This document shows positions 3,001 to 9,000 of a stretch of 26,967 bases of DNA, one piece after another. Each line of letters opens with the position of its first letter. Position 1 is the first letter of the stretch. The stretch spans positions 1 through 26,967 of the IMG/VR virus record IMGVR_UViG_2541047926_000013; one strand, given 5' to 3'. A program made the position numbers. The stretch is from a virus (lineage: Duplodnaviria > Heunggongvirae > Uroviricota > Caudoviricetes).

Positions 3001-6000
3001 CAGGTGTAGCTCCTTGCCCCATAGCACTTTCCAGGCTAACAACCGTATAGAATTCTTGTCCGATGTCTCCGGTTTCTGGAGTGAAGAACACCGCGCCAAT
3101 GGAAACGATCGGTGCATCCTTATTTTTCCCCATCGTCTCAAGGTCGATCATTAAGTTGTTCATCACTTCACCTCCTGCGGCGGTTCCGGTAGCGGCATCC
3201 AGTGAGTTGCTTGCTCAATACCATTACCCGGCTTAATCGTTGCATCTCCGCGCCGAAAGGTGCTTCCGGTATAGCGTGCGGAGCATATTAGCGGTTCAAC
3301 CAGAGAGCTATCGAAATTCACCGAAATAAGCACGTTCTGGCCCTTTTCAGGCATTCGATCACTACAGCTTATCCAACCATCCGGAGTTACCGGAGAGTTG
3401 CCATTTACATCGAAGTTTGGCTCTGCGTCCTGAACCAGGAGGATGTAACCATTCTTGGCAGTATCAAGTTCTAACGCCTCGGTGACGGTGCCGAAATAGC
3501 GATTACCTAAATCAGCATCACAAGTGCTTACATCAATGGAAACTTCCATGCCCTCAATTAATTCTGGCAAGTTGTAAGTTTGGCTTACAGGTTCGGCTTC
3601 CAGCGATGCCAGTGCAATACGAAGCGCCTGAATTGTGGTAGTGCTATCGTTTGGGACTATTCCATATCGCTCGAATACAGCGATATGGCCGCGTATAATC
3701 TCAGGCGTAAGCTCTTTGTAAGCATAAGCAAGAGACTCTGATGCATTATCCGGCACTACTGGCGATGGCTGTTTAGCTTCTAAATCAGCAATTCTGTCAA
3801 CCACGGCATCGACAGCATCTGAAAAACTGAAACAGTTACTCCACTCAGGCCTATCCCCGGTTGCTGCAAAGTACATATCAGCTAAAGCAGACTCAGCATG
3901 GTCACGCTCATTAATTAGTTGCTCTTCGCTTTTCTCCAGTTCAGCAATGCGCTTACCCCCATCCGAGATAACACCTTCATAATATTCACGCTGCTCGTTG
4001 AGTTTTGATTTTGCTGCCTCCAGTTCGTCCAGTAGTGCAATCACATCAGGGTCACTGTCATCAACTACTGTTACGCGTGATTTTTCATAATGCTCGTCGG
4101 CAAGTGTTCGACCAATTTTGAAATCTCCATCACCACCATAACTGGAGCAGGCATAAACGACATGTGCTCCAGATATACGCTGTATTGACATTTCCTCGCC
4201 ACAAACAGAGCATTCAGGTACTGGCTTAGGTGAATAACGTTCCCGTAGCGCCTGATAATCAATCTTGCTCACTGGTTGCCCTCCTTCATAAAAATAATCC
4301 AGTGGGTCTTGTCACCCTTTCCTGTTCGTTGACCGATAACAGGCTTTCTGTCGGTCAGTACCAATATTTGGCGAACAGGTATTTGCGTTTCATTCCATTT
4401 AAAAATCAGAACGCCGTATGGACGCAACACACGAAAGGCTTCTTTAAATCCCTGCCGCAAATCATCACGCCAGGTGTCTTTATTCAGCCGTCCATATTTC
4501 TTTCCCATCCAGGCGTTATCACCGACACGCTCAAGATGCGGAGGGTCGAATACAACCATCGAAAAAGATGCGTCTGCAAATGGTAGTGCACGAAAATCAG
4601 CTATCAGGTCAGGACTGATAATCAGGCGCCGTCCATCACACAATGTGTGCTCTTCCTTTCTGATATCGCTAAATATCGCCCGGTCGTCCTTCTTATCGAA
4701 CCAGAACATGCGACTGCCACAGCACATGTCGAGGATTGCTGCATGTCCAGTCACTGGTTGCCTCCTTTGCGAATCTGTTCCGCCCATTCTTCAAGGGATT
4801 TCTCCGCATATTCACCAGACAGGCCATCAATCGGATGCGGTTCATTAGCCAACTCTTCTTTCGCTGACAGAATCATGCGTGTAACGTCGAAAACTTCAGC
4901 CAAAGGCTTATTGATAAATCCGTGATTGAAAGCAGCAGCAAGACGGCTTGCGGTATAGTTAATACCCTCGTTGCGAGCCTCAGCACGTACTTCATCGAAT
5001 TTACGCACCAGATACTCAGCATTTGTTTCATTCACTTTCAGATCTCGCGGTACACATTTCCCGCGAAGAAACCCTTCCATTTCGAAAACATTCATGCGCA
5101 TGTGCGTAACTCCGATAACTCGTTAAAGCGCTCCATAAACATCCCGTAGGCATGGCTCGGAGCCAGTGGAATAACTTTGAACATTTCTGTTGCCGGGATA
5201 CCTTCCAGTACTGGCCAGAAAGAGCCATCATCAAGCCCGAGATCGCGGCGTTCGGTTGCCAGCATGATGAGATCGGCATATTTCACAGGCGTGCTCATAA
5301 CCGGGGGTAACCCGTATTTCTCACGGATTACGGCGTCTATTTTTTCTTCCATCCGTTTATAGTCAGGAAGAAGGCGTTTCAGTGGAGCGGGAATATCCTG
5401 GCAATACGCTTCTGTTGCATCATGCATTAACGCTTCAAAAGCAAATTCCTGCGGCACCAGCTGGCTGCAAAGCACCGCATGCTGGGCGACACTGTAGAAG
5501 TGTGAAAGATGTCCTGCAAAGCGACAGATATTTGAAAGGGAAACCGCGATATCGTTAATCACGATGTCGTCTTTATTTATCTTGTCATAATAAAAATGCT
5601 TCCCGGAAAAAGTTTTAATAAATGACATTTTGTTCTCCACTTTATATGCGCTGCACCGCGCTGAATTCGGGTAAAAGGAATCCCGCACCATCCGGCGATT
5701 ATTGAGTTAATTACGTTTCCATAAATGCCCCCGCAGGGGCATTTGCAGTAATGAAATCAGGCGGTGAAAGTACCAATAAAGGTTTCTACTTTGCTGTCTT
5801 TGAATTTCTCAACAAGCAGATCACGAAATTCGTTAGCCATTTCTTCCTGCACTGCTTCCAGCTGAATAATGCGCAGAACCAGTACAGGACGATCGCCAGT
5901 GATAATGCTGAGGCGTAATTTAAACGGACGTTCTTTCAGACCTTCAAACGGAACGCATTTAAATTCAAATGCCACTGGCATAATGTCTTTGGTCTTCGCT

Positions 6001-9000
6001 TCGACAGATTCCATCAGGGAGCGTTTGCCGCTGAAGTCATTATCTTCAAAATCAGCGGTCTGGTTTGCTTCAATCGTGATTTTACGGACAGCCGCAGCCG
6101 CTTTTGTTGCCTGAATAGCGTCACCATTAGCATCAAAGCCTACAAGGTAGTCGGCCCAGTCTTCAATCCATTCTGCCAGTGACTTCTGGGAGTTACGCTC
6201 GCCGTTAACAGACAACAGAGCAGAGAACGGTGCTGTCTTTTTCAGTTTGAGAGTGGCGGTGTTATCTGCGTGACCTGGTTCATCAATAGTACCCAGGTTA
6301 AGCACACTGACGGCACGCATATTATCAGCATCGATAAAGCAGCGGGTGCCTTCATCTGCAAGATCTTTAGAATAACGGGTAAAATCATCGATGCTGGCAG
6401 TGGAAAGCGCGCCACGGAAACGGAAGCGATTTAAATTAAATTTTTCCAGATCATGAATGCGGAAATTCTCAGGCAATGCCACAGCATCGGCACCAATCTT
6501 ACTGATAATTTCATTAACACCCTGAGCAGAAATAAGAGCATGGATTTGATTAATTGCGGTTGCGTCTAAGTTCTGAGACATAATAAGTCCTCACTATATA
6601 AAGATATTCAGTGATGAGATAAATAATCAGTTAATTAAGAACGATATTAATGACCTGCTGCGCGGAGTTTTCCGTCAGGTTCACCGGCAAGAGTCAGTAA
6701 TTGTCCCTGGTCTTCCTGCAGAATAGTCAGGCGACCACCGCGATTGACATACATCGGCGTTTCGGTGGTGTCTTCTTCAGAAATTTTCCCGCGGTTAGTC
6801 GGGCGAACATATGAGAGTTTGTGTTTGATTTTCACACGGTTCTCATCAAACGGTTCGATTTCCAGGTTGAGCGAGACCTTACCTTTGGTTTTCGTGTTCA
6901 TCACACCGGAAGCGACTTCACTGAGAACAGCGCCGATTTTGGTTTCAAATACGCCGCCGTCCAGCTCCCCGATAAATGCCTGCACATCAGTACTGCGTTC
7001 GCTAGCCATTTTGCTGCTCCTCATCATATCGACCCTGCAAGGTCGGTTAGTTTCTCCACAAAACAGAGAAGAACACCTGCGGTGGTAGCCGCCCGGATGG
7101 ATTGGGTTATGAGCCCGTCGTCCGGTGATGCTCTTCTCTGTTTTGTAAAAAGAGCGGTACCAGCCGGAAGCAAGTGTACAAACTGGTACCGCGAGGACTA
7201 CACACAGCATAAAGTTGTGGTGCCGGGTGCCTCCCGGTGCCTGGCGAAGGTTGCACACCAGGCGGGTGGGTATCCACAGAAGGTCGACTGTCAGCCTCAA
7301 CCTTAACCCGCGTGCGCTGAGCCGCATTCACCACAACGCTAAGGATTCTCTCTGGTTGAAAATACTTAGCTGTTATGTGCCTGTCTTTTCACCACTTCAG
7401 GCTCGGTGGTATCTTGGTGTTTTCATATAGCCAAGAAGGAAATAGTTATGACCAAAGAAGAAAAAATTCTTTATTTATTCCAACTATCGGTTAAGACTCA
7501 CACTGCATATCAGACTGCTGCCATGACATCAGATAAAAATTACAGTACGTCAGAAAACCCGATAGACGACATAAGCAAGCTTTACGATAAGTTCGAAGCA
7601 CTACTCGATAAAAAGTTTGCTGAGGCTGGGCTTGAGTGATTGTTGAATAATCGACAAAACCCAACTTAAATTTTCGTCAGTGGGCTCGATGCCATGTGCG
7701 GTGAGCTCACTTTTCAAAACTCCAAGCAATTCAGAGCTGATTTTCAATATATCTGCTTGATTTCTAACTATTCCCACTTTTTCCTCCCTTGGTCTACGCG
7801 CGGTCATGTTTTACGCCCAAACGACTTCACAGTTATTGTTTAAAATCTGGACTTTCATTTTGTTCTTTAACCTCCAGATACGGGCGTTTAATGGCCCCGC
7901 CGAACAGCTCTTTTCCGCAATAGCTGCAATGTCTTTCGCGCATCAGCCTGCGCATTCAGCACAACTCTAAAAACAAATGTAGGATATCCAACATGTGAGT
8001 GTCAAGAGTTTATATTGGTTATCCTACATAAAAAGATAGGCTCATAAAAAAACCGGGGATACCCCGGTTTTGCGATAGTGAGGAAGATGTGTCAAAAATC
8101 CATTATTACTTGTTTGACAAGACCAACTATTCTGCAGTTCTCACCGCATTCAATAGTTTTATAGTTAGGATTTAGTGGGACGAGATACCTGTTCGGCCAG
8201 TCCTCAACAAATTTTTTGAGTGTCGCTTCTTGCCCACCATTGATATGGGCAACAACGATTTTTCCGTTAATACACTCTGTATCAATAATATCTGGCTCTA
8301 CGATAACGATAGAACCTTCTGGTATCGATGGTGAGCCGAGGGGATTGGTCATTGAATCACCACGGACCCGTAGTGCAAATGCCATTTCTGATACAAGGGC
8401 GGTAGTATAAACCCACTCTTCAGCATCTTCTTTCCTGACACCAGGCTCCGTCATTGTCCATGAACCCGCCTGAACCCACGAGATGAGGGGGACTTTTTTA
8501 ACTGCGAATATTTCAGGTTTTAGATTTATCTTTGGTTCAGGCGAGCCTTTTCCGCTAACAAGCCACAGAGGATCGCATTTAAGTGCGTTGGCTAGGGCTT
8601 GAAGGTTGGCTCCATTTGGTTGGTAGTCGTCCTTTTCCCATCCAGTAACCGTGACACGGTTCACACCAGTCAAATCAGCCAGTGCTTGTTGTGTCAGGTT
8701 CAGTTCTTTTCGCCTTTGGCGAATACGATCACTCATGTTCATCATGTAGGCAATCCTACCACATGCCCATGTAGGATTCTTGACATTGGTATGTTGGATA
8801 TCCTACATTTATGCTTAACGTAATTTAACGGGAGACAGAAATGCGGAAATCCGACGTGATTAATTATTTCGGCGGAGTTTGTAAAACCGCCGAAGCCCTA
8901 GGTATTAAGCATCCTTCTGTTTCAGAGTGGCCTGAGATTATTCCTGAAGGCCGAGCGTACCAGTTAGAAAAAATTACTAACGGGAAACTGAAAGTTGACG

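Follow-up and report, generated by a model that had tools for sequence, protein, structure and literature searches.

We analysed a 26,967-nucleotide stretch of viral DNA (Caudoviricetes; positions 1 to 26,967 of IMG/VR virus record IMGVR_UViG_2541047926_000013), here called the window, and asked what is encoded by three of its genes, yfdP, yfdQ and yfdR, which lie at 5092–7009 on the minus strand. We found that these genes form a composite block, in which an obligate yfdP–yfdQ pair is accompanied by a facultative yfdR neighbour. This division of the block is new here; the block itself is named, very common and partly characterized, and its identification as yfdPQR is correct and already known. 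The role that we favour, at a probability of about one half, is host takeover, in which YfdR binds the host initiator DnaA at domain I and, with YfdQ, restrains host initiation early in lytic growth.

We identified the three open reading frames (ORFs) by BLASTP as full-length orthologues of YfdR, YfdQ and YfdP of prophage CPS-53 (also KpLE1) in Escherichia coli K-12 MG1655. The first, yfdR (5092–5628), encodes an HD-domain protein of 178 residues with 97.8% identity to K-12 YfdR over 178/178 positions (E = 3e-135). The DUF2303 protein encoded by yfdQ (5757–6581) has 274 residues and is 99.3% identical to its K-12 counterpart (E = 0), and the 120-residue product of yfdP (6647–7009), a member of the PF27127 family, is 99.2% identical over 120/120 positions (E = 1e-87). 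The preliminary description of this DNA had placed a yfdPQR-like cluster within exactly these gene bounds; judged by sequence, the resemblance is one of orthology, not chance. The yfdR frame is open further upstream, to 5691, and that of yfdP to 7327. We took the short starts of all three genes as correct because Shine–Dalgarno sequences (GGAG, GAGGA or GAGGAG, 6–8 nt upstream; GAGGAG 7 nt before the ATG at 7009 in the case of yfdP), the N-termini of homologues and the RefSeq annotation agree. The long starts were discarded as coding sequence, since it is the short ones that agree with homologue N-termini and ribosome-binding sites.

We next compared gene order in 80 loci of different species, obtained from a scan of genome contigs, and in phages CP2 and PG1, searching six-frame ORFs with profiles built from alignments. 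In every one of the 81 loci with upstream DNA, yfdP was directly upstream of yfdQ on the same strand, with a gap of 12–204 nt. This adjacency extended to Marinobacter, Hahella, Photobacterium, Psychromonas, Kistimonas, Xanthomonas phage CP2 and Pseudomonas phage PG1, and the adjacent pair is kept in temperate and virulent phages of Enterobacterales, Pseudomonas, Xanthomonas, Marinobacter and Vibrionaceae. The gene directly downstream of yfdQ was yfdR in 54 of 82 loci; in five more, a gene for a repeat protein intervened. In Pseudomonas phage KT1, a YfdQ-like gene lies about 0.5 kb from a YfdR-like gene, so the link between yfdQ and yfdR is not strictly enterobacterial. Clustering of neighbouring ORFs returned the recurrent order repressor, yfdP, yfdQ, yfdR, exonuclease and xis/int in dozens of species. 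Among 79 loci of other species, 58 carry a CI-like repressor gene upstream in the same orientation. The three genes had been described as one module. They do adjoin, but they fall into two units, the constant pair (81/81) and yfdR (54/82), and the published functional set reaches beyond them to yfdS and yfdT.

The case for host takeover is backed by published experiments on K-12 proteins that are 98–99% identical to those in the window. The yfdQRST genes were isolated as a multicopy suppressor of hda-185 over-initiation (Noguchi & Katayama 2016, PMC4776307). Multicopy yfdQ and yfdR together with either yfdS or yfdT inhibit initiation at oriC, with yfdQ and yfdR both required, and the inhibition was observed in the wild type and in several regulatory mutants (PMC4776307). 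YfdR was the only one of the proteins pulled down by DnaA, through domains I–II and in a Phe46-dependent manner, and it competes moderately with DiaA and DnaB; extracts inhibited oriC replication in vitro (PMC4776307). For the ancestral phage, the authors suggest a part in takeover comparable to that of lambda P (PMC4776307). The suggestion in the preliminary description that the block might serve host takeover thus gains experimental backing, and its statement that no function is established no longer holds for YfdR and holds only in part for YfdQ.

The setting of the block fits the claim that it is an early module. The yfdPQR genes lie in an early-left operon beside a CI-like repressor gene (8092–8745, minus strand), which marks the immunity region and encodes helix–turn–helix and S24 peptidase domains (Pfam Peptidase_S24, E = 4e-25; HTH_3, E = 1e-15). 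A candidate pL-like promoter (7976–8005, minus strand; TTGACA-18-TACATT, judged by consensus match only, at 10 of 12 positions) precedes the operon, and there are no opposite-strand genes between this site and yfdPQR. A rightward promoter-like site at 8780–8809 (plus strand) has the same hexamers, and a Cro-like ORF follows at 8841–9038 (plus strand). With its repressor, Cro-like ORF and paired promoter-like sites, the window is a lambdoid prophage, and it looks like an intact relative of the decayed CPS-53.

In the mechanism that we favour, yfdPQR would be transcribed leftward from the pL-like promoter next to the cI-like repressor gene, and their products would accordingly be made early after induction or infection. 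YfdR would then bind DnaA domain I at the Phe46 surface and compete there with DiaA and the DnaB helicase. When oversupplied, YfdR and YfdQ would block initiation at oriC together with another small protein, which in K-12 is YfdS or YfdT, and the predicted outcome is that, early in the lytic cycle, no further rounds of host chromosome replication are started. YfdP and YfdQ, whose adjacent genes are found with or without yfdR in phages of several bacterial orders, probably act together as a multimeric assembly; the 36 chains in the deposited structure of a YfdQ homologue are in keeping with this. We infer takeover during phage development, its operation without yfdS or yfdT, and the YfdP–YfdQ complex; the initiation block has been seen by overexpression in K-12 only. 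Lambda P and Bacillus subtilis SirA, small factors that bind the host initiator and thereby prevent initiation (PMC4776307), serve as a working analogy only. SirA uses the equivalent of DnaA Phe46 (PMC4776307), whereas lambda P binds DnaA domain III and YfdR binds domain I. Neither is related in sequence to YfdR, which, unlike them, needs further gene products in vivo.

Several observations weigh against this role. The K-12 phenotype appears only on multicopy or overexpression, initiation was unchanged when yfdQRST were deleted, and in the authors' own view the phenotype could be an artefact (PMC4776307). The yfdP gene is dispensable for the multicopy phenotype, and YfdQ, YfdS and YfdT showed no detectable binding to YfdR, DnaA or oriC (PMC4776307), so that DnaA binding does not account for the part played by YfdQ in the inhibition. 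Besides yfdQ and yfdR, the minimal set as published requires yfdS or yfdT. The first two genes are intact in the window, but yfdT is missing and of YfdS only residues 1–42 are present. Finally, yfdR was missing from 23 of 82 yfdPQ loci, including every non-Enterobacterales locus sampled, and many virulent phages with unrelated hosts encode a YfdR-like HD protein by itself. The functions of YfdP and YfdQ on the one hand and of YfdR on the other therefore need not be linked.

The missing component became apparent on comparison with K-12 CPS-53, which has the same order and spacing of yfdP, yfdQ and yfdR and, as in the window, a 10-nt overlap of yfdR with the next gene. In the window, this next gene (4751–5101, minus strand), which overlaps the yfdR stop, is chimeric and encodes 116 residues: residues 1–42 match K-12 YfdS at 88%, whereas the C-terminus beyond residue 42 is of PHROG 614 or ‘Eae’ type and unrelated to YfdS. 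DUF551, which is reported in K-12 YfdS (PMC4776307), was not found in the chimeric protein, and a search of the whole window with K-12 YfdT (tblastn) gave no match. Separately, DUF551 is carried in the window by an Ead/Ea22 fusion protein. The window also differs from CPS-53 in that a cI/cro immunity region of about 3.5 kb still separates yfdP from the yfdO homologue; K-12 has lost it. Beyond this region, K-12 YfdO (98%), YfdN (95%) and YfdM (99%) map to 10568–10933, 10933–11424 and 11427–11693 on the plus strand. YfdO corresponds to the C-terminal part of a 313-residue helix–turn–helix-containing ORF (9995–10936, plus strand), and YfdM to the N-terminal part of a 228-residue Dam methyltransferase ORF (11394–12080, plus strand). 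Since each matches only part of a longer ORF in the window, these K-12 genes look like truncated remnants.

We mapped the mosaic ends of the block on 80 near-identical E. coli prophage loci, found by a YfdQ-alignment scan of viral contigs. The collinear block ended most often at 4990–4995, inside the chimeric yfdS-like gene. At the other side it ended at 7192 in 44 of the 80 loci and continued beyond 7400 in 34. These ends therefore delimit a mobile unit of about 4993–7192, which contains a leader, yfdP, yfdQ, yfdR and some 36 codons of the gene that follows. The position of the junction at about 4990–4995 suggests a recombination hotspot in the N-terminal module common to genes of the YfdS, Ead and Ea22 types.

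An alternative to host takeover is that YfdR serves the nucleotide pool, dephosphorylating deoxynucleoside 5′-monophosphates early in infection, in which case DnaA binding would be incidental and YfdP and YfdQ would be unrelated neighbours. The pre-early Dmp function of phage T5 resembles such a role. The catalytic signature of YfdR agrees with it. Residues H50, H69-D70, D78 and D119 were invariant, and E73 nearly so, among 20 homologues with 65–98% identity. The preliminary description had named loss of the HD motif as a weakness to look for; the metal-binding and catalytic residues are instead intact, and their strict conservation across genera implies selection on catalysis. The HDxxE....D segment aligns with that of the E. 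coli 5′-deoxynucleotidase YfbR (HDASE...D), an HD-domain dCMP phosphohydrolase, and the whole protein aligns with Atu1052 (PDB 2gz4, E = 6e-14), the sole match of a PDB sequence search; all three have the signature H...HDxxE....D...D in common. YfdR also matched PHROG 318, ‘deoxyribonucleoside 5′ monophosphate phosphatase’ (E = 1.7e-109), the NCBI family name is of the same kind, and RefSeq names the matching gene yfdR, 5′-deoxynucleotidase. Of the 178 residues, four differ from K-12 YfdR, all in the C-terminal 28. YfdR-like proteins were present in 333 phage records, many of them from virulent phages of unrelated hosts without yfdPQ, among which are large virulent phages of Caulobacter, Bacillus and Pseudomonas.

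The relationship to YfbR is nevertheless distant. Identity is only about 33% over a 40-residue core, the score against Pfam YfbR-like PF12917 fell just under the gathering cut-off (24.0 versus 25.9 bits), and that against the YfbR equivalog model NCBIfam NF003009 was 19.9 versus a cut-off of 122. We therefore regard YfdR as an HD enzyme related to YfbR but not as a YfbR equivalog. In the account that PMC4776307 gives of Zimmerman et al. 2008, YfdR is a structural homologue of YfbR and a low-affinity 5′-deoxynucleotidase whose nucleotide affinities are far below those of YfbR and whose function ‘remains elusive’. DnaA binding is reported for YfdR (PMC4776307) and, in the literature consulted, not for YfbR. 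A nucleotide-pool role also leaves the genetic need for yfdQ unexplained, and we hold it to be possible but on balance unlikely.

The two proteins of the yfdP–yfdQ pair can also be considered apart from YfdR. YfdQ is a single-domain protein whose residues 7–272 cover profile positions 2–269 of 269 in Pfam DUF2303 PF10065 (E = 2e-92; 309.7 bits versus a cut-off of 26.6). Its family comprises 1,466 clusters at 50% identity in a set of 1.84 billion representatives, nearly all of 265–285 residues. Among 139 diverse members with a median identity of 40%, the residues kept in at least 85% include E46, R52, R56, T61, G97, P102, H104, Q132, E140-D141-W142, R166, P202, P211, R223 and G270. A homologue has been solved (PDB 9o7m, ‘YfdQ Protein’), with 36 chains in the entry; it aligns with residues 16–273 of YfdQ at about 38% identity (E = 1e-44), and our literature search found no paper describing it. 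Its chain shares 98.8% identity with a protein of the CP2-like Xanthomonas phage MET23-P3 and 93.5% with the YfdQ orthologue of phage CP2. As in the window, the CP2 gene has a yfdP homologue directly upstream, but there is no yfdR beside the pair, which is followed by a coiled-coil protein of 471–511 residues and an Erf module.

YfdP is less well defined. The homologues listed all carry PF27127, and the PDB contains no solved relative and no YfdP-like chain. AlphaFold2 (AF2) modelled YfdP as one long helix and a three-strand meander with a predicted local distance difference test (pLDDT) score of 67. The most conserved stretch, residues 77–104, overlaps a segment (90–107) that AF2 could not place for the protein alone (pLDDT below 50), and in this model the conserved, unplaced segment is likely to be one that binds a partner. 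Fold searches of the PDB with the YfdQ and YfdP models (entries to April 2026) returned no informative relatives. A tentative proposal, on balance unlikely, is that YfdP and YfdQ constitute an autonomous two-protein machine, a megadalton assembly without a whole-chain match in the PDB, with an undescribed early function in DNA metabolism or takeover. YfdR would then be just one of several interchangeable downstream partners, with SSB, a 3′–5′ exonuclease or Erf in its place in other lineages.

A related possibility, compatible with the others, is that the pair is an accessory of DNA metabolism (for recombination, repair or the restart of replication) sitting where the Rec module would be, with yfdR a separate add-on. 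The yfdPQR genes are common in lambdoid early-left operons, where the pair takes the position of the recombination genes, and this includes phages that have no Rec module; the function of two of the three products is not known, and they were judged unlikely to be cryptic recombinases (PMC12315714). K-12 yfdQ deletants are mildly sensitive to methyl methanesulfonate and hydrogen peroxide, according to work cited in PMC4776307. In loci without yfdR, the pair is often followed by a gene for SSB or a DnaQ-like 3′–5′ exonuclease. In phage CP2, the coiled-coil protein that follows the pair is succeeded by Erf, an exonuclease, an endonuclease and SSB. A 3′–5′ exonuclease is encoded in the same leftward operon as yfdPQ(R) in 23 of 79 related loci from many genera, and in the window at 2591–3166 (minus strand; Rv2179c-like 3′–5′ exo(ribo)nuclease, Pfam E = 2e-74). 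These neighbours fit a role in DNA metabolism, which we nevertheless consider rather improbable.

Phages are known to encode hydrolases and sponges that remove the nucleotide messengers of host defence (Acb1, Apyc1, Tad1/2 and Acb2), and the preliminary description had raised a counter-defence function for the block. Here the HD enzyme would destroy, or YfdQ or YfdP would sequester, messengers of systems such as CBASS, Thoeris, Pycsar or those like type III CRISPR. The circumstantial points in its favour are the location of these early genes in a variable accessory region, the multimer-prone nature of YfdP and YfdQ without informative fold relatives, and a report that YfdQ overproduction changed the output of another phage in one K-12 background (bioRxiv 10.1101/413146). 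We consider this function highly improbable: the HD domain is of the nucleoside-monophosphatase (YfbR/Atu1052) type; no sequence or fold link to known anti-defence proteins emerged, and among PDB structures the YfdQ and YfdP models matched no anti-defence hydrolase or sponge; there were no PADLOC matches, which is weak evidence given that its library holds defence rather than anti-defence proteins; the literature searched contains no report of such activity; and anti-defence genes typically evolve fast, whereas the block is highly conserved and occurs in over half of E. coli genomes.

That conservation was evident at the DNA level, with yfdPQR found in 3,031 of 5,426 complete E. coli genomes at 95–99% identity and annotated yfdP, yfdQ and yfdR. 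A further 154 phage records matched the block, mostly at 90–99% identity. The same block occupies the early-left operon of functional phages, including SfV (orf29–32), SfIV, SfII, mEp460, ST64B (gp35–37), LLS (gp37–39) and many Stx-converting phages, and that of the window shows no difference of substance from theirs. The YfdR of Escherichia phage Lys8385Vzw is 100% identical to that of the window. As annotation, our analysis adds little, the genes being named, partly characterized and carried by over half of the E. coli genomes sequenced. The remaining value lies in YfdP and YfdQ. These are among the commonest genes of lambdoid early-left operons, including those of Shiga-toxin phages, and YfdQ is genetically required in K-12 for a DnaA-directed block of host replication. 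The two always occur together, with YfdR optional, and the window offers them in an intact prophage that lacks the yfdS/yfdT component of the K-12 experiments.

The spacer between yfdQ and yfdR measures 128 nt and contains a GC-rich hairpin with a 9-bp stem just past the yfdQ stop (5723–5744, minus strand; AAATGCCCC-TGCG-GGGGCATTT, with no T run after it). A 61-nt segment of this region folded at −18.2 kcal/mol (z = −2.95 relative to shuffled sequences). From its sequence, the hairpin could be a processing or stabilizing element that separates yfdPQ expression from that of yfdR. The repeat-protein gene found between yfdQ and yfdR elsewhere belongs to prophages of Symbiopectobacterium, Serratia, Atlantibacter, Acerihabitans and Limnobaculum (loci L097, L098, L099, L113 and L137). 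It spans about 5850–6980 of those loci (1855–2640 in L137) and encodes tandem ‘TGITSLPxxLSVGGxLxL’ repeats (leucine-rich-repeat-like, 175–369 residues) with a conserved C-terminal domain.

Read leftward from the pL-like site, the operon of the window consists of two small ORFs, a match to the RNA STnc100, yfdP, yfdQ, yfdR and the yfdS-like gene, followed by a small methyltransferase-like gene, the Ead/Ea22-DUF551 gene, the Rv2179c-like 3′–5′ exonuclease gene and a PrtN-like gene, after which host DNA begins. The ORF directly downstream of the promoter (7833–7955, minus strand) encodes 40 residues with a CxxC motif. The second (7601–7807, minus strand) encodes 68 residues with an arginine-rich N-terminus, MTARRPREEK, and matches PHROG 15476; it occupies the slot where lambdoid phages encode N-type antiterminators. 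Upstream of yfdP, a prophage small RNA (sRNA) or leader of STnc100 type, related to PasD, covers 7145–7367 on the minus strand (Rfam RF02076, full-length model; 49.1 bits versus a gathering score of 47, E = 6e-8). STnc100 and PasD have been described as related prophage sRNAs (bioRxiv 10.64898/2026.05.13.724894). The common mosaic boundary at 7192 falls within this match, and none reached the gathering score in 13 other yfdPQ loci, K-12 CPS-53 among them.

Further along the operon, within 3163–4787 on the minus strand, the methyltransferase-like gene (172 residues; PHROG 954, DNA methyltransferase) overlaps by 4 nt the gene for a 369-residue fusion protein with Ead/Ea22 as its N-terminal domain and DUF551 at its C-terminus. 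The window begins part-way through a host DUF2713 gene (1–708), and the left end of the prophage lies within 1–2270, where this gene is followed by a stretch of low GC content (36–41%) and then by the PrtN-like gene of the prophage. A 178-residue ORF in the low-GC stretch (1319–1855) had no Pfam match. At the equivalent position, the closest E. coli genome carries a YafO-type toxin gene and a partial tRNA-dihydrouridine synthase fragment.

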